From NCBI GenBank assembly GCA_947625255.1, contig CANQNT010000014.1, positions 5,977-69,976 of the forward strand: a stretch of 64,000 bases of DNA, written 5' to 3'. Positions 54,202 to 62,791 of this stretch are shown here, one piece after another (positions within the stretch are counted from its first letter, which is position 1; each line of letters opens with the position of its first letter). A program made the translations under genes and the position numbers. The notes under the pieces were generated by a model. That model did not search any database and was not told the origin of the DNA. It saw nothing but the letters and a program-made list of their open reading frames with translations. This DNA is from an uncultured Acetatifactor sp. (GTDB lineage: Bacteria; Bacillota; Clostridia; Lachnospirales; Lachnospiraceae).

Positions 54202-55644
54202 TCACCGGGCCTGCAGCTTAATGACCACGTCCCCGTTCTCCTCGATTTCCAGATGCATGGGCTTGATAAAACGGTTATAAAACTGCTGCCGTTCCGCCTC
54301 CGACATGACTACCCGCGTGGAATCAAAAGCCGCATCCAGCATCTCGTTGATATTGAGCCGGACGGTCTGGTCCAGATAACGATAAATCTCCCGCACTAAG
54401 GCGCTGATCTTAATACCGTTGCTGTTGCCGGAATAGAAATCATCAATATAGCAGAAAAAAATACCGGAATTCACCAATGCCGCCTTGATATCACTCCCGC
54501 ACTTCTCATGCTCCACCATGACCAGGAAATGGGCTTCCGGCAGCGAGGAAATCAACCCCCAATAATCGGAATCACTGGAAACGATAATGAAGGAATCCAC
54601 ATCATTTTGATAGAATTCCCTGCAGGCCCCCGCGGTCAGACGGATGTCCACCAACGATTTGCTCTGCTTGATCCGCTCAATCATCACATGCTCCACGGGA
54701 ATGGACGTATAGGTATCCAGAATCTTCCATGCGCTGGCAGTGTGAATGTCGTCAAAAAGAATGATCTTCACAATCTTTTGCAGCGTATCGGAGCTTAGAT
54801 TATTCAGCGTTGCGCAGAGCTTGTAAGGATCCGAATTTTCACAGTCCACCACGATCACGGTCCGTTTACTGTCATCCAGGAAGTCATAAATACTGCTCTT
54901 GGTAAAATTCCCCACGTCCGATACCTTGCTCAGATCCGTAAATTTATCATGATTCCATTCATACAGCAGCGTAACAAACTTCAAATCATGAAATAAAATA
55001 TTACCCTGATCCGACGCGGGCCAATTCATATAAACCTGATACGGATAAAATGAACGCTTTGCATAATATAAATTGGCTGCCTCCCGGGTGCCCGCCTCGG
55101 TCAGGCCCTTGGGCATGATAAAAATATCTCGTATATATTGCCAACTGATCCATAAGGGGAATAATTCTTTACAATTATTGATTCTGTCCGAAATATAACG
55201 ATTAATTTCCACCAGATGCTGAACCAGACTCTTTCTGGAACCGCCAAACCTGATACCATCCTCCGAAAGCTGATAAATCGATTCCTCGGGAATGAGGTCC
55301 GGCACTGTCATAATACTCTTGTATTCATAATTGATGCGGTCGTTGATCGCTTTAAAATTCCGCTCAATCGAAGTGCGCAAAATGCAGAGATTACGAATGA
55401 TTCTGGCATTTTTGTTCTTTTCCAGCCGAACGAAAACATCCATTTGCGGTGGTTCATGATCATTTTCGAAAATGCGCTTGGGAACGCCAAGTAAATATGC
55501 GGTAAGCGATATCAAGGAATATGTATATTTTGTTCTCGTCTCTGGTTCGTCCCTTTTCTCTCCCGGAACGGAAGCCGGATTCTCTTCTGTAGCTTCCAGA
55601 TGCTTTTCATCCTGTGCATAATGATCCATCCATTCTTCTGCCAT
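54202..55644 (-). CDS. NYN/PIN-like domain protein with uncharacterised N-terminal region
   Basis: C-terminal VIVVDCENSD...FIIVSSDSDYWGLI, the acidic NYN/LabA pattern. Confidence 0.7.
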   Translation of the reverse strand: MAEEWMDHYAQDEKHLEATEENPASVPGEKRDEPETRTKYTYSLISLTAYLLGVPKRIFENDHEPPQMDVFVRLEKNKNARIIRNLCILRTSIERNFKAINDRINYEYKSIMTVPDLIPEESIYQLSEDGIRFGGSRKSLVQHLVEINRYISDRINNCKELFPLWISWQYIRDIFIMPKGLTEAGTREAANLYYAKRSFYPYQVYMNWPASDQGNILFHDLKFVTLLYEWNHDKFTDLSKVSDVGNFTKSSIYDFLDDSKRTVIVVDCENSDPYKLCATLNNLSSDTLQKIVKIILFDDIHTASAWKILDTYTSIPVEHVMIERIKQSKSLVDIRLTAGACREFYQNDVDSFIIVSSDSDYWGLISSLPEAHFLVMVEHEKCGSDIKAALVNSGIFFCYIDDFYSGNSNGIKISALVREIYRYLDQTVRLNINEMLDAAFDSTRVVMSEAERQQFYNRFIKPMHLEIEENGDVVIKLQAR

Positions 55645-55947: not shown

Positions 55948-56391
55948 TTACTTCTCGTCCAATTGGGAAGTACAATGCGGGCATCTCACCGCATCGATAG
56001 CGATCTCACTCTTACAGAACGGGCAGATCTTCGTCGTAGGCGCTGCCGGCGCAGGCGCTTCTTCCTTATGTTTGAACTTCTCATTGAGCGCGTTCAAACC
56101 CTTGACAATACAGAAAATCACAAAGGCGGTAATCAGAAAATTGATAACAGCCGTAATAAAGTTACCGTAGGTTAACACCGGGGCATTCTCTCCACTTCCC
56201 AAAACCACTACCAGATTGGAAAAATCCGTTCCGCCAAAGATACCAAGAATGGGGGTCAGGATGTCCTGATTCAGACTGGTAACGATGGATGTAAAGGCTC
56301 CGCCCACGATCACACCGACGGCCATATCCATAACGTTTCCTCGCATAATGAATTTCTTAAACTCGCTGAAAAAACCATTTCCCTTGCTCAT
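55948..56391 (-). CDS. mscL: Large-conductance mechanosensitive channel
   Basis: FKKFIMRGNVMDMAVGVIVGGAF, YGNFITAVINFLI; C-terminal CPFC..CPHC. Confidence 0.96.
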   Translation of the reverse strand: MSKGNGFFSEFKKFIMRGNVMDMAVGVIVGGAFTSIVTSLNQDILTPILGIFGGTDFSNLVVVLGSGENAPVLTYGNFITAVINFLITAFVIFCIVKGLNALNEKFKHKEEAPAPAAPTTKICPFCKSEIAIDAVRCPHCTSQLDEK

Positions 56392-56528: not shown

Positions 56529-57644
56529 TCAAGGTGTAATAATCTGCCTTGCCATTTCCGCCCCGGCCGCATGGGGCGTGAACAAGTCTTCCGCACCCGG
56601 CGTCAGATAAATCTCGCCCTCCCGCGTCACAAGCACCATCTCAAAATCCTGATGTGCGCGCCAATAAGCGGAGGCTTTTTCCAGCCCCATGACATAAAGC
56701 GCCGTAGATAGCGCGTCACACAGTTTTCCCTCGGACGAAATGACCGTGACGGAAGCCAGGCCGCTTTGAGCGGGACAACCGGTGGCGGGATCAAGGATAT
56801 GACCATATTGCCTGCCGTCTTCTCCTGTAAAATAGCGTTCATAGGCTCCGGAAGTGACTACTGCCGCATCCCGCACCTCCACGACTCCATAAAGATCCTG
56901 GGAAAAAGGATCCCGCAGCCCCAACCTCCAGGGGGTCCCGTCGGGTTTGGAGCCTAAAGTCTGAATATTGCCGCCCAGATCCAAAATGGCGGAAGTGACA
57001 TTTCTTTCGCGCAAAAAATCAATCAGCAGATCTCCCGCCCAACCTTTTCCAACCGCACCAAGATCCAGCATCATGCCCGGTTCCAGCCTGACCACATTTT
57101 CCTCCAACCGCACACGCGCATACCCCACTCGCTCTAAAAGTCCGGCAATTTCCTCCAAATCCGGAATACGGTATTCTCCGGTGGTAAAACCCCATGCCCG
57201 CAATAACGGATAAACCGTGGGATCCAATGCTCCGTCCGTTTCCCTGGCCATCTCCAGGGCAAATCGGATAATGTCGGCAGTCTCAGCGCTGACTGAAACC
57301 TCCCGGTCAAAATTCCTATCCGTCTCACCGGCTGTCTCCATCGCGCCGGCATTTACCGCGTATATCTCGCTCTTTTCCTCCGTGACAGACCAGAGAGCTT
57401 CCCATGCGAGGACCCGATCTCTGGCTTCTTCCAGAATTTCATCCATCCCATCTCCGTAAGCGGTCAGGGTCATCCGGGTATCCATGGCGAAAAAAGTTAC
57501 CACGGATTTCTCCGTGTTTTGCCGCTCACAGCCCGTGAGCACCACAGCGAAAGCGGTCATGCTCAAAATAATATATAAGAGCGCTTTCAAGATCCCGCTC
57601 CTTACACAGCGCGGCTTTCTATGTACCAACCCATAAGCTTTCAT
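56529..57644 (-). CDS. apbE: FAD:protein FMN transferase lipoprotein
   Basis: Lipobox LTGC, FAMDT, DLGAVGKG, LDLGGNI, VTSGAYER, HILDP, DALST. Confidence 0.92.
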   Translation of the reverse strand: MKAYGLVHRKPRCVRSGILKALLYIILSMTAFAVVLTGCERQNTEKSVVTFFAMDTRMTLTAYGDGMDEILEEARDRVLAWEALWSVTEEKSEIYAVNAGAMETAGETDRNFDREVSVSAETADIIRFALEMARETDGALDPTVYPLLRAWGFTTGEYRIPDLEEIAGLLERVGYARVRLEENVVRLEPGMMLDLGAVGKGWAGDLLIDFLRERNVTSAILDLGGNIQTLGSKPDGTPWRLGLRDPFSQDLYGVVEVRDAAVVTSGAYERYFTGEDGRQYGHILDPATGCPAQSGLASVTVISSEGKLCDALSTALYVMGLEKASAYWRAHQDFEMVLVTREGEIYLTPGAEDLFTPHAAGAEMARQIITP

Positions 57645-57896: not shown

Positions 57897-60800
57897 TTAT
57901 TTTCGGATTCTTCTGCTTCCAAGGGCGGCAGCACTCATCAGAACCGCCAACGCAAGGATCAACGACCATAGAAGCAGATTCGCACCATCTCCAGTTGCCG
58001 GAGACGCAAATCCATCCGTTTCCATCGTTTCCGCAGAAGCGGATACAGACCCTTCCGCAGACTGGTTCGTTTCCGTAGACGGAGCAGAAGCAGACTCCTC
58101 TCTTTCACTATCCGAAGACTGAGACTCCTCCTCTTCGCCGGGGTTCCCGGACTCTCCGGGATTCTGTTCCCCGCCGGGGTTCCCGGACTCTCCGGGATTC
58201 TGTTCCTCGCCGGGGTTCCCGGACTCTTCCGACTGCGCCGCCACGAGGAACGTGGACAGGCGATCGACAACAATCGTCACACTTCCGTCCGCGCCAACCT
58301 TTTGACTGCCATGATCGATCACTTCTCCATCATGAAGCTGGTATACGATCACTGACTTACCCGCATACTCCGTTCCCACAAGCAGGTTCAGATGAACAGA
58401 ACCAAAACCCTCTTTCAATTCCGAGGTTTCTTCGCCATCCACATGTAAAAGCATTCGGATTTCATAGCTTCCCAGAGGCTCATATCCGGTTTCAACTTTC
58501 TCCTGCAGCTTGCCGACATTTTCCTCGGATGTTTCTTCCTGCGTGATCACAATCTCAATCGACCGGCCTGAAAAATTCTTAACGATATCGTTCAAATCCA
58601 GACCGCTCATATCCACTTTTACATTGGTCTTAGTGTCATCTGTAATGACAATGTCCGTATATCTGGTATTAACCTGGTCACAGCGGTCACATTTCGCGGT
58701 TTCGCTTCCATCACCGTTCAAAACATAATGCGTAAAGCTGTGACCAAGCGCCGGAATCACGGTACTATCCTTTACAGCGTTACAGTTGCGGCAATGGATG
58801 GACTTACTTCCATCCTCCAGGCAGGTAGGCGCTTTATCAACCGTGTAATTTTCCTCCCAGGCATGACCAGAAGCCGCCACGCCGCGGGTTTCCACGAAAC
58901 CACAAACCTCGCAAACGCGCTGTTCTCCGCCATCCGCGTCACAAGTAGGGGTATTCACATACGTCCAATCCCCAAACTGATGACCAAGGGCAGGCAAGTT
59001 CTCCACTTCCACCGATTCCGTATATACCTCTCCGCTTGAAAGCGTGACCGTGGCAGTGTAGGTGGTCTTTCCAGGCTCGGCACAAGTGGCCGGCATCACA
59101 TCAGCAGTCACCAAAACATCATTTTCATACTGAACATGAGACGCGTCATTTTCACACAGCTGTATCAAAACCGCGGCAGAATAATCTTCCGCCCACTGAA
59201 GTTCCGGATCCGACCACGCATGGCCGATTGCCTCGATGATGCGTGACTCTATTTCGTTACATACAGAACAGCTGCGGGTCTCGCTTCCCTTTTCCTCGCA
59301 CCCGGGAGCCTTTGCCACCGCCCATTCAGTCCACTGATGACCGGGAGCTGCTACTTCCGTTTCCTGCACTTCCCCGCAGAAATTACAAGTTTCGATGATC
59401 CATCCGGGTATCAGGCAATCCGGTTCCACTTCCTCGCTCACTCTGAAATCATGGCCAGTGGCAGGAATTTCATTGATCTCAATCAGGTTACAGGTAGCGC
59501 ATCTGCGAGCCTCACTTCCCACTTCCGTACAAGTAGGAGACTCATAAATATCCCAACCGGACATCTGGTGCTCCAGCATCGTACCCGGAGCCGGAATCGT
59601 GTGCTTCACTCCGCATCCATTCTCACAGGGAGCCGTTTTGCTGCCGTCCTGGGTACAAGTGGCACTGCCCACGTCATAAACATAGTTCGTAAACTGATGA
59701 CCAAGAGAAGGAATTGACTCAACGCTGCCCGGCTTCACGGCTTCACAATTCTTACAATGGATGGATTGACTTCCTTCCAAGGTACAAGTGGGCTCCTGAT
59801 CGATCGTAGATTCTTCCTTCCAATCGTGCCCATTTGGATTGGAAATTATCTCATCAATTGCTCCGCAGACCGTACAACGACGCTCCCGCACCCCCGTGTC
59901 ATCGCAATCAGGAGCAGTAACATCTTTCCATTCCGTCCAGGTATGCTCTTTGGGAGCCGTCAGTACCTCTTCCTTACTGCTGTCGCAAATTTCACAATGG
60001 TATTCAATATATCCATCCTCAAAACAGCTTGCCGGATTCCTAAATTCCTCCACCCAGCTATGTCCAAGAGCATCGGTAAATTTGGTCTCTCTCGAAAGCT
60101 CCAGGCCGCATTCCGTACATATGATAAGTTCCTCGTAGGAACCGCCATCTTCACAAGCAGCGAATACTTCATTCACCCGAATCGGTTCGCCGGGGGTATG
60201 ACTCGTCAGCGAATCTTTCACCTGACAATCCGGATTCAGACAGGTATGCCAGTGACTATCTTTATCATGCTCCCAATTCGCGGCAAACACATGAGCCGAC
60301 TGCGCGGGAACAAGCACATATCCACACTCACACTCTACCCCGGTGAGGCAGTTATGATCGTCATTTTCAGGAAGTGTATGCGCGGCTCTGCTCGTTTCAT
60401 CCACATATCCGCATACACCGCAGGCTTTCCAATGTCCGGCATCATCCCTCAGGGGTTCCATATCATGTAACACCCTGCCGCTTGTATAGCCGCATTCGGT
60501 ACATTCCTGCCAATGATAGTTCTCATCGGACCGCATCTCCATATTATGAGGGGCCGTTTCCCGATACAAACACGCAACACATTCGTGATAATGACCCCCT
60601 GCCCCATTCGAGATCCAGCCCTTGCCATATCTATGGGAAGCAGCATATGCAATTACTTCACAGCCATCATTTGTACATATAAGAACATGCCGCGTTTCTG
60701 TCAGCTCCCATTGATTGCCATACCATGGCTGAGGCGGAGTGACATGGCTTCTCTTTGCCTCCTTGATCCTCCAGCCGCAAACGCAATACAGCGCGGTCGT

Positions 60801-62666
60801 ACAGTCACCATCATCCTCCGCATAGTGTGCTTCCGCTTCACTGACTGCCTGACACCCGGGATTGACGCATTTACGGCTGTGACCGGCCTCCGTCGTCACA
60901 TATTCCCCCGTAAAATTATGCGACAACTGCGCATCGGACAGTTTCTGATGACAAACCGAACATTCTACCGCCGTGGTACAATCATGATCCTCCGCATAGG
61001 GAACATGCGCCGTCTTGGGCAAAGCAATAGAACGAGTATCGCCGCATTTTGTACAAGTATAGGCGGCCGCACCTTCTTCTATACAAGAGGGCTCTTTCGT
61101 AATCTTTTCCTCATAGTCATGCCCCGTGGGATCCAACTCTTCTTTATAACCATTGCCACAGACGGAACAGGTATAGGTTCTTTCTCCTTCTGCCGTACAG
61201 GTAGGCTCTTTCGTAACCTGCGCCTGATAATCATGCTGCCCCGTGGCGGGAATAACCTCCCGCTGAACTTCCGTACAATTGGCGCATTTTCGCTCTTTCA
61301 ATCCAGGCTGGCCACAATCAGGCTCCTTGATTACTATCCAATTATCCAGCCACTTATGAAAAGTAACCATACCATTTCCCCGGTTCCAATACTCCCGATA
61401 GCCACAGTCCCGACATACACGGGAATCATAGCTGGGTGTCACACAAGTGCCGCGCTGGGAATTGGTGCCCCAGTTGCCGAATCGATGTTTATGCTCCAAA
61501 GCCTGGGGATACTCGGCAATATTCTCCACGACTTCCACAAAACCGCAATCCTTACACCTCTTATAAGTATAGCCCTCTTTGTAAATATACTTATTATCAT
61601 CGCCGACCGCGCTGACCGGATCCACCGTAACTGTCTCATAATTATGAACGCTTTCGCTTTCCGCCAGCATTGTCGTCAGCTCAAAACCACAGGTTTGGCA
61701 TACCTGTTTCCGGTATGTACCGTGAATGGTTGCCTTGATTTCTCCCCCATCCACAAAATGATGCCCCAGGGCACTATACCCTTGCCCCTGGACGACGCCG
61801 AATTCCGCTCCGCAATATTTACATATATAGGCGCTCTCGCTTTCTCCGGGAAGATTACAAGTGGCCTGCTTAGTCACACGCCTAATAGGAATGGTCTCTC
61901 CCACGCTGGACGTATTGGCATGCTTCCAGATCTTCAGGGAGGTTGTCTTGCCATAGCTGTTTTCCGCTACGACACGCATGGAAAGCACATCCTTGAAGTC
62001 TCCGTCAAAATCCAGCAGAAATGTATACTCCGTCTCTGACTGGGGACTGAGCTCCCTCTCTATGCCATTGACAGTCACCTTGGCCAGGGTTCCGCTCTGC
62101 GCGGTAATCGTGATGGTAGGCGACTTACAATAACTGGATGCTATATCCCTGCTTATGGTCGGCCAATAGGAATGCATCGTGGCATCTCCCTCCGCGCGCT
62201 TGACCGTAATTTCCGGGGCCAGGATCACCTCCCGGACAGACTCGGAAGGTTCCTCCGTCCCTCCCGCGTCACCGAAAGGAACGCCGGACGGATCCTGGTC
62301 TTCCCCGGACGGACCGCCGGACGGATTCCGGTCTTCCCCGGACGGACCGCCGGACGGATTCCGTTCTCCCCCGGACGGACCTCCGGACACTTCCCCATCC
62401 CCCGAACTGACGGAAACATTGGACACTTCTGTCTTCCCGCCGTTCACAACCGCGTCTTCAGAATTTCCCGAGGTCACCTCTGTATCAGACAAAAATACAA
62501 TGTCCCCGTCCGCGGTATGGACATGGTCATCATGTACATAGGACTCCCCCTTCTCCTCTTCCTCGTACCCATCCTCCTCTGCAAAGGTTGGCGTTACAAC
62601 ATTGGTAAACACCAGGACGCCGCAAAGAAGCAAGGCTACCAATCGGGCATTTTTCAACCCTACCAT
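57897..62666 (-). CDS. 1589-aa cell-surface protein with Cys/His-rich repeat array and sortase-type anchor
   Basis: Signal peptide, 21 CxxC plus about 7 variant Cys modules, C-terminal SPATG + hydrophobic segment + RRIRK. Confidence 0.85.
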   Translation of the reverse strand: MVGLKNARLVALLLCGVLVFTNVVTPTFAEEDGYEEEEKGESYVHDDHVHTADGDIVFLSDTEVTSGNSEDAVVNGGKTEVSNVSVSSGDGEVSGGPSGGERNPSGGPSGEDRNPSGGPSGEDQDPSGVPFGDAGGTEEPSESVREVILAPEITVKRAEGDATMHSYWPTISRDIASSYCKSPTITITAQSGTLAKVTVNGIERELSPQSETEYTFLLDFDGDFKDVLSMRVVAENSYGKTTSLKIWKHANTSSVGETIPIRRVTKQATCNLPGESESAYICKYCGAEFGVVQGQGYSALGHHFVDGGEIKATIHGTYRKQVCQTCGFELTTMLAESESVHNYETVTVDPVSAVGDDNKYIYKEGYTYKRCKDCGFVEVVENIAEYPQALEHKHRFGNWGTNSQRGTCVTPSYDSRVCRDCGYREYWNRGNGMVTFHKWLDNWIVIKEPDCGQPGLKERKCANCTEVQREVIPATGQHDYQAQVTKEPTCTAEGERTYTCSVCGNGYKEELDPTGHDYEEKITKEPSCIEEGAAAYTCTKCGDTRSIALPKTAHVPYAEDHDCTTAVECSVCHQKLSDAQLSHNFTGEYVTTEAGHSRKCVNPGCQAVSEAEAHYAEDDGDCTTALYCVCGWRIKEAKRSHVTPPQPWYGNQWELTETRHVLICTNDGCEVIAYAASHRYGKGWISNGAGGHYHECVACLYRETAPHNMEMRSDENYHWQECTECGYTSGRVLHDMEPLRDDAGHWKACGVCGYVDETSRAAHTLPENDDHNCLTGVECECGYVLVPAQSAHVFAANWEHDKDSHWHTCLNPDCQVKDSLTSHTPGEPIRVNEVFAACEDGGSYEELIICTECGLELSRETKFTDALGHSWVEEFRNPASCFEDGYIEYHCEICDSSKEEVLTAPKEHTWTEWKDVTAPDCDDTGVRERRCTVCGAIDEIISNPNGHDWKEESTIDQEPTCTLEGSQSIHCKNCEAVKPGSVESIPSLGHQFTNYVYDVGSATCTQDGSKTAPCENGCGVKHTIPAPGTMLEHQMSGWDIYESPTCTEVGSEARRCATCNLIEINEIPATGHDFRVSEEVEPDCLIPGWIIETCNFCGEVQETEVAAPGHQWTEWAVAKAPGCEEKGSETRSCSVCNEIESRIIEAIGHAWSDPELQWAEDYSAAVLIQLCENDASHVQYENDVLVTADVMPATCAEPGKTTYTATVTLSSGEVYTESVEVENLPALGHQFGDWTYVNTPTCDADGGEQRVCEVCGFVETRGVAASGHAWEENYTVDKAPTCLEDGSKSIHCRNCNAVKDSTVIPALGHSFTHYVLNGDGSETAKCDRCDQVNTRYTDIVITDDTKTNVKVDMSGLDLNDIVKNFSGRSIEIVITQEETSEENVGKLQEKVETGYEPLGSYEIRMLLHVDGEETSELKEGFGSVHLNLLVGTEYAGKSVIVYQLHDGEVIDHGSQKVGADGSVTIVVDRLSTFLVAAQSEESGNPGEEQNPGESGNPGGEQNPGESGNPGEEEESQSSDSEREESASAPSTETNQSAEGSVSASAETMETDGFASPATGDGANLLLWSLILALAVLMSAAALGSRRIRK
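58137..58227. repeat. 36-bp tandem repeat, about 2.5 copies (ESGNPG(E/G)EQNPG)
   Basis: GCCGGGGTTCCCGGACTCTCCGGGATTCTGTTCC(C/T)C units starting at 58137, 58173 and 58209. Confidence 0.9.
62284..62382. repeat. 33-bp tandem repeat, 3 copies (GGPSG(G/E)xxxPS)
   Basis: Units start at 62284, 62317 and 62350. Confidence 0.9.
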
Positions 62667-62791
62667 ACAATTTCCTCCTCTACCTGTTTTAATGTGGTAA
62701 AACTAATCAACTGCCGTTTTCAGTATAGCAAAATCCAGGACCAAATGCCACATACTTTTCTTTCCAAACCCGCCCGATAAGAATAATTCCC

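Follow-up and report, generated by a model that had tools for sequence, protein, structure and literature searches.

The 64,000-nucleotide stretch of DNA analysed here (the window) comes from an uncultured Acetatifactor sp. and carries on its minus strand a giant gene (57897..62666) whose product consists largely of consecutive Cys/His modules. The product is probably a sortase-anchored, zinc-clasped stalk that carries an N-terminal beta domain. The basis for this reading is the sequence anatomy, the homology to the ZBD regions of an immunoglobulin A (IgA) protease, a confident model of the beta topology, the ligand statistics, and a sorting signal together with sortase genes in the genome. 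From these we infer the identity and occupancy of the metal, the rigidity and length of the rod, its attachment to the wall and a binding role of the tip. The gene and the parts of its product are laid out as follows.

57897..62666, minus strand: whole gene, a single intact open reading frame (ORF) of 1589 codons plus stop, encoding 1589 aa.
62580..62666, minus strand: Sec signal peptide, residues 1-29, with K5, R8, a hydrophobic core and TFA/EE cleavage, assigned by eye from the sequence.
62235..62579, minus strand: acidic low-complexity tip region, residues 30-144, containing HDDHVH and three 11-aa repeats of the NPSGGPSGE(D/E)R type.
61920..62234, minus strand: N-terminal 'cap' beta domain, residues 145-249 (~105 residues), with a lone C180 ('YC') and a terminal H249, defined by AlphaFold2 (AF2) and conservation.
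58662..61919, minus strand: array of 28 Cys/His modules, residues 250-1335, defined by motif counts, AF2 and profiles.
60201..61007, minus strand: central block of nine short modules (27-37 aa), residues 554-822, defined by unit cutting, AF2 and profile search.
58242..58661, minus strand: Cys-free wall-proximal beta domain, residues 1336-1475, with homologues found by phmmer in the related proteins P0003 and P0004.
58005..58241, minus strand: acidic Gly/Pro/Glu/Ser-rich linker, residues 1476-1554, holding a 36-bp DNA repeat at 58136-58227.
57900..58004, minus strand: cell-wall sorting signal, residues 1555-1589, with SPATG, D, a hydrophobic helix and RRIRK, read from the sequence.

Residues 267-1335 contain 28 Cys knuckles by regular-expression count, namely 21 CxxC, two CxC, one CxxxC, three CxxxxC and one C-x5-H. 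This is exactly the tally of 21 CxxC motifs and seven variants given in a preliminary description of this DNA. Cys and His make up 6.9% and 4.4% of the region. The units were defined by cutting the array at the recurring 'GH', which yields 28 units of 27-80 residues with one knuckle apiece. His is the first residue of units 2-28; unit 1 has none, and its His is H249 from the N-terminal domain. One additional Cys or His is found in every unit except 3 and 28. The two repeat types that had been proposed, A and B, were both recovered. The type A consensus is H-x11-PTC-x3-G-x5-C-x2-C-x9-A-x-G (~39 aa), and the type B pattern is H-x(8-13)-H-x3-C-x(2-4)-C (27-31 aa). Type B units alternate in the central block (554-822) with H..C-x5-C-x(1-2)-C units. 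Unit 25 (59220-59222; residues 1149-1228) is 80 residues long and has a longer sheet and a C-x-N-D-x-S-H knuckle (C1171..H1177). This 'CxNDxxH' variant recurs in many homologues, for example as CKNDASH and CANDSSH, and is therefore a third standard knuckle type of the family. Amino-acid identity between units is just 17-45%, indicating that the modules are old and diverged. The ligand pattern is repeated in 3236 consecutive modules of 134 related proteins, with a His between successive knuckles in more than 99.7% of them. A pattern that recurs on this scale is far beyond chance.

Together with one boundary His per unit, all of the Cys of the mature protein (75/75) fit 28 predicted four-ligand sites, 19 of them Cys3His and nine Cys2His2, and no predicted site holds four Cys. 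The sole Cys outside the predicted sites is C15 in the signal peptide. The arrangement of these sites was read from the AF2 model of residues 908-1109, which has a pLDDT (predicted local distance difference test) score of 94.9. The model is all-beta, and each of its five units has three strands. In a unit, the beta1-beta2 loop carries the first Cys, whereas the CxxC is at the beta2-beta3 turn, at the far end of a 7-residue strand, and the boundary His is located at the knuckle end of the unit. Because they are at opposite ends of the strand, the first Cys and the CxxC cannot share a metal within one unit. In the predicted site, unit i contributes the extra ligand, unit i+1 the knuckle, and the linker between them the His. 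In a second AF2 model (residues 139-868), the type B block has three short strands per 27-31-residue unit (pLDDT ~63-84), and the N-terminal domain has 6-7 strands (pLDDT ~80 within strands). As modelled, type B is a type A module with shorter strands and not another fold.

If a site is shared by two modules, its extra ligand should be dispensable in the last unit of an array. This was examined in 272 proteins with 455 arrays, each of four or more units. A Cys at -10 or -6, or a His at -4, was scored as the extra ligand, which occurs in 94% of first units and 90% of internal units, but in 25% of last units. The following boundary His is present in 96%, 97% and 36% of these units, respectively. 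When any Cys or His at -12..-2 was accepted irrespective of its position, the values were 98.6% for first, 94.8% for internal and 58.6% for last units, with an odds ratio of 12.8. Since the last units mostly lack the extra ligand, these results are indirect support for sites that bridge two neighbouring modules. For the Cys/His ligand sets described earlier this means a correction, as the four ligands would come from two modules and not from one. A site with four ligands within a single unit had been considered, and it was dropped after the strand topology and the last-unit statistics.

The ends of this array can be described in the same terms. The extra ligand is missing from unit 28, the last one. 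At the other end no module precedes the first knuckle (C282/C285), and the N-terminal domain offers its lone C180 and terminal H249 there. This domain is conserved in P0003, P0007, P0008, P0040, P0004, P0082 and P0125, and C180 is unchanged in all seven (7/7). Unit 3 lacks an extra ligand, and the boundary there has two ligands, HKH in this protein and CKH in the orthologue P0003.

The modules have known relatives. A profile built from 13 type A units was searched against PDB sequences, and the top match was 9qa6_A (E = 2.7e-5; chain 942-978 and 1103-1132). The profile from type B/C units gave the same top match (E = 0.0036; 909-929 and 1075-1095, 'HWHEC'). Both matches fall inside ZBD1 and ZBD2 of the Thomasclavelia ramosa IgA protease (IgAse/ThomasA, UniProt Q9AES2; construct sequence in PDB 9QA6), as these regions are named in PMC12237041 (PLoS Pathog 2025); they are the CTD2 and CTD4 of PMC12415215 (PNAS 2025). 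Both papers describe them as predicted three-stranded sheets with putative Zn sites at subdomain interfaces, and isolated CTD2 is an extended rod in small-angle X-ray scattering (SAXS) that fits the AlphaFold2 model (PMC12415215). An EMBO J paper (PMC12402451) names the same regions beta domains and, in the passages searched, does not discuss metal sites there. The module kind was reported in 2025 as a prediction in one protein, and literature searches for a named repeat family gave nothing beyond the 2025 IgA-protease papers. Foldseek with the 908-1109 model returned no solved structure of matching fold, and 9QA6 was not returned. Judging from this missing match, the ZBD region is presumably absent from the deposited 9QA6 coordinates. 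No family was found when the whole protein was compared with Pfam and NCBIfam at E <= 1, except one DREPP match far under the cut-off, and phmmer of the whole protein against PDB sequences gave chance C2H2 matches only.

The preliminary description had suggested profiles of both repeat types as a check and a match to an already characterised family as a refutation. The survey found thousands of proteins, and fused surface domains among them. A search with region 440-1340 gave 3034 significant proteins among length-matched candidates. Out of 1.84 billion, the type B block profile matched 4047 representative clusters, 1388 of them at E <= 1e-10, the best matches mostly carrying B/C-type knuckles. 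The fusion partners in relatives include Flg_new, Big_2, LRR_5, cohesin, dockerin, CAP, SLH, fn3 and other surface-protein domains. A spacer role fits these data, because in relatives the modules are joined to domains of adhesins, enzymes and anchors. As for the refutation, only half of it applies: the repeat matches the 2025 IgA-protease ZBDs, which are themselves only predicted. By its sequence the repeat is not new; thousands of proteins have it, and it is of the same kind as the putative ZBDs of the T. ramosa IgA protease. Within this very large family of modules the giant protein is an ordinary member, though a clear one.

A mechanism can be proposed for how such a protein would work. The protein would be exported unfolded via Sec and would fold outside the cell. 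[quoted passage not shown] Each junction would take up one metal, most likely structural Zn(II) in tetrahedral coordination, giving a stiff rod. Of the four ligands of a junction, the upstream module would supply a Cys or His from its beta1-beta2 turn, the linker its His, and the downstream module the two of its CxxC-type knuckle at the beta2-beta3 turn. Through C180 and H249, the first site would link the first module with the N-terminal beta domain. Scaled from the ZBD1 model, which is 110 Å for 129 residues, the rod would be ~80-90 nm long. A sortase would fix the C-terminus (SPATG) to the cell wall of this gut Lachnospiraceae-type anaerobe, and the rod would hold the N-terminal beta domain and the acidic His-containing tail far from the wall.

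The features of a sortase substrate are all present, namely the signal peptide (1-29), SPATG followed by 25 uncharged residues and RRIRK, and sortases in the genome. The C-terminal sequence is SPATG-DGANLLLWSLILALAVLMSAAALGS-RRIRK. The genome has five PF04203 sortase genes above the Pfam cut-off, and the sorting-like C-terminus noted at the outset is borne out by the hydrophobic helix and RRIRK behind SPATG and by these genes. Clostridioides difficile SrtB substrates bear (S/P)PxTG sorting signals. The likeness to these substrates includes SPATG rather than LPxTG, the hydrophobic helix with a basic tail, and several sortases in the genome. Six to seven ORFs of the genome share xPxTGD (xP[KAE]TGD), a W-containing transmembrane helix and a basic tail. 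Six further such ORFs lie outside the window on contigs C8, C16, C18, C27, C32 and C1, have xP[KAE]TGD or SPAAGD with an Arg/Lys tail, and include ORFs of 3902 and 6556 aa. A pilin-like cluster on contig C73 has LPxTG-type signals beside two sortase genes. The genome seems to have two classes of sorting signal.

Several points weigh against the zinc-clasped stalk. The metal sites of the family members, including those of the IgA protease, are predicted only. The sequences in the end-of-array test are related, so the p-values are inflated. The second AF2 model, which covers the N-terminal domain and the type B block, was built from just seven sequences and has a pLDDT of 72. The predicted template modelling (pTM) scores are low (0.56 and 0.34), as rods would give, and do not support a fixed inter-module geometry. 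The end-to-end stacking is drawn from strand topology, statistics and published models. One P0003 site has no Cys or His at the ligand position of the upstream unit. The N-terminal tip domain has neither a Pfam match nor an informative fold match.

The rod itself may be the functional part. Exposed or half-filled Cys/His sites would then bind metal between molecules and zip together rods of one cell or of neighbouring cells. The outcome would be Zn-dependent aggregation or biofilm formation, as for Aap/SasG with their G5-E repeats. By Pfam, an adhesin or enzyme domain is not recognisable in the giant protein, as had been stated before, and this would suit such a role. PMC12415215 likens CTD2/CTD4 to the Zn-dependent Aap/SasG repeats, and an N-terminal HDDHVH-type motif is kept in two orthologues. 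However, one chain already supplies all four ligands of every predicted site, clasps within a molecule agree with the last-unit statistics, and isolated CTD2 was interpreted as a single extended rod by SAXS (PMC12415215). Zipping between molecules is therefore unlikely.

Still less likely is that the modules are metal-free, with free thiols, disulfides or thioether-type cross-links formed after export and with His in a structural role. The metal sites of the whole family are predicted ones, which leaves room for this, and the IgA protease is monodisperse only with dithiothreitol, which implies that its thiols are reactive. The ligand statistics point the other way. Among the 3236 modules of 134 proteins, Cys is found at -10 from the knuckle in 69% of the modules having a first Cys. 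His is found at -4 in 31% of the units without the -10 Cys, versus less than 4% of the units with it. This Cys/His swap favours a metal site, because His can stand in as a metal ligand but never in a disulfide. The Cys count is odd, with three per type A unit and 75 in the mature protein, and the boundary His is nearly invariant as given above. The exchange of Cys for His at one ligand position, the odd Cys count and the near-invariant His together argue for metal ligation and not for disulfides. Moreover, the host lineage is strictly anaerobic with a reducing habitat, and there are no disulfides in the structures or models of the IgA protease (PMC12237041).

The preliminary description had offered three functions, a metal-stapled rod or stalk, a redox filament and a metal sink. 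The first is retained on the ligand sets, the Cys/His swaps, the beta model, the ZBD homology and the sortase signal, and the other two are not. A redox filament would have Fe (rubredoxin-like) sites passing electrons to extracellular acceptors. The rubredoxin matches of the module profiles are weak (E = 0.02-0.4) and limited to 10-13 residues of the knuckle alone, and all of the sites are Cys3His or Cys2His2, none being Cys4 or Fe-S-like. With one site per 27-45-residue module, the centres would be ~20-37 Å apart. Fast electron transfer is usually limited to ~14 Å, and the predicted spacing is well over this limit. The partner of such a filament could be sought in the gene that lies 252 bp downstream of the giant gene, at 56529-57644 (minus strand), which encodes an ApbE-family FAD:protein FMN transferase (Pfam E = 5e-83) with a lipoprotein-like N-terminus (LTGC). 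However, the giant protein has no [ST]GA[ST] flavinylation motif, no FMN_bind match and no haem motifs. ApbE is not beside the orthologues P0003 and P0008, whose neighbours are SpoIIR/Ddl and DUF1189/rubrerythrin. A redox filament is accordingly very improbable, and a surface protein flavinylated by the adjacent ApbE was rejected on the missing motif and the differing neighbours of the orthologues. The ApbE gene has its own promoter-like site and is probably unrelated to the giant gene.

A surface sink that sequesters or stores Zn or other thiophilic metals (Cd, Cu) would make use of the 28 predicted sites per chain and the His-rich acidic tails, but it is just as improbable. The same modules are found as spacers in thousands of proteins that have enzyme, adhesin or anchor domains, and 24 same-genus genomes lack the gene. 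There is no metal-responsive regulator or transporter near it, and buried tetrahedral structural sites exchange metal slowly.

The zinc-clasped stalk was also compared with known systems. The giant protein and the IgA protease have homologous three-stranded up-and-down modules with predicted Cys2His2/Cys3His interface sites, and both are extracellular, have an SPxTG-type ending (SPQTG in the IgA protease; PMC12237041) and a proposed role as rod or 'periscope' spacer. They differ in that the IgA protease has 3 + 2 modules beside a metalloprotease, whereas the giant protein has 28 uninterrupted modules and no enzyme domain. Cys3His dominates here (19/28 sites) and Cys2His2 in the IgA protease (4/5). 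In contrast to the IgA protease, the first site of the giant protein appears to recruit a separate N-terminal beta domain. What is new here is this apparent recruitment by the same kind of site, and an argument for inter-module clasps that is drawn from sequences only.

Classical zinc ribbons (the C-terminal domain of TFIIS, RPB9, ribosomal bL32) and rubredoxin knuckles resemble the modules in their three-stranded antiparallel sheet, their CxxC knuckle at a beta-turn and their tetrahedral site with four ligands, which in the modules is predicted, and subdomain I of ZBD1 distantly resembles the TFIIS domain (PMC12237041). The modules are not classical members of these groups, with one knuckle per module instead of two (CxxC...CxxC) in an autonomous domain, no Pfam or NCBIfam match at E <= 1 and no fold match. 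The periscope or stalk repeats (SasG/Aap G5-E, Rib, SHIRT), with which CTD2/CTD4 were compared in PMC12415215, share with the proposed stalk the C-terminal sortase anchor, small beta modules that lack a large hydrophobic core and form long arrays, the rod shape and a functional N-terminal tip. In contrast, these repeats have no intramolecular Cys/His metal sites, and in Aap it is acidic and His ligands of different chains that bind the Zn. Typically, periscope arrays are also nearly identical at the DNA level and variable in copy number, unlike the units of the giant protein with their low identity. Tandem Repeats Finder detected no module-level DNA repeat in the gene, only two short linker repeats, a 33-bp repeat at 62278-62388 (3.4 copies, 92% matches) and the 36-bp repeat at 58136-58227 (2.6 copies, 98% matches). 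These two acidic-linker repeats are the only regions of the gene where the copy number could readily vary.

The N-terminal domain was followed in the relatives. Region 140-345 gave nothing significant at database scale, and a local hidden Markov model found the domain in about a dozen of the proteins retrieved. Relatives with the same N-terminal domain and module order end otherwise, with SPKTD and a transmembrane segment (P0003), Lys-rich Big_2 (P0007, P0008), CBM_X2 and fn3 (P0040) or LRR_5 (P0004), and orthologues differ by one module. Compared at the sequence level, this agrees with anchors that are exchangeable beneath a conserved distal tip and rod. The Cys-free domain at residues 1336-1475 has no Pfam match. 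The low-complexity tip region enters the AF2 model with residues 139-144 only (pLDDT < 50). At the mature N-terminus, residues 30-59 (62490-62579, minus strand) form an acidic stretch with the His cluster EEEEKGESYVHDDHVHTADGD. The orthologues P0007 and P0008 carry EEEETEHIHTHD at this position, and P0003 does not. The His cluster may serve to bind metal at the tip.

The N-terminal domain, and hence an orthologue, is absent from the 24 same-genus and 16 same-order genomes compared, so the giant gene is accessory. Type A modules are found in 14/24 of the same-genus genomes and in 1/16 of the same-order genomes. In this genome, the only other ORF with these modules, about six of them, lies outside the window (G000:C1:41406-44834, plus strand). 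It has a DUF6273 domain, a family to which the IgA protease's N-terminal domain also belongs, and a Ser/Gly/Pro linker. Its C-terminal beta domain is weakly like residues 1336-1475 (E = 8e-5), and it ends with a plain transmembrane segment and no sorting signal.

A large module family is missing from Pfam and NCBIfam and has no solved structure matching by fold. The giant protein is a near-pure array of 28 modules of both length classes with a capped start and end, which makes it a convenient model for defining the repeat, for the structure of the junction and for the question of zinc stapling. Because the end-of-array statistic supports inter-module clasps, a family model should allow for a conservation unit that spans the junction. 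The gain for this bacterium's own biology is modest, one accessory surface fibre. The rod could need extracellular zinc and reducing surroundings, because the sites would be shared between modules and folding would take place outside the cell after Sec export. It is a long shot that the rod and the link to its tip could exist only under these conditions, which would make such proteins a class of metal- and redox-gated surface fibres. If they were, zinc withholding by the host or exposure to oxygen would collapse thousands of surface proteins of gut Clostridia, and adhesion and enzyme reach would be altered across many gut species at once.

The expression signals of the giant gene were read directly from the DNA, and an identical product is encoded on an ENA metagenome contig. 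Promoter-like consensus matches upstream of the gene are no more numerous than in shuffled sequences.

62674..62680, minus strand: strong Shine-Dalgarno sequence GAGGAGG, 7 nt ahead of the ATG at 62666, by direct sequence reading.
62722..62751, minus strand: promoter-like site, GTGGCA, 18 nt, TATACT with a TG extension, a consensus match alone.

Two neighbouring genes on the same strand were also noted. The gene at 54202-55644 (minus strand) encodes a 480-aa protein with an NYN (PIN-like nuclease) domain in its C-terminal half. The gene at 55948-56391 (minus strand) encodes an MscL channel with an extra C-terminal CxxC...CxxC tail, KICPFCKSEIAIDAVRCPHCTSQL, which has weak zinc-ribbon Pfam matches and is an unusual MscL fusion.

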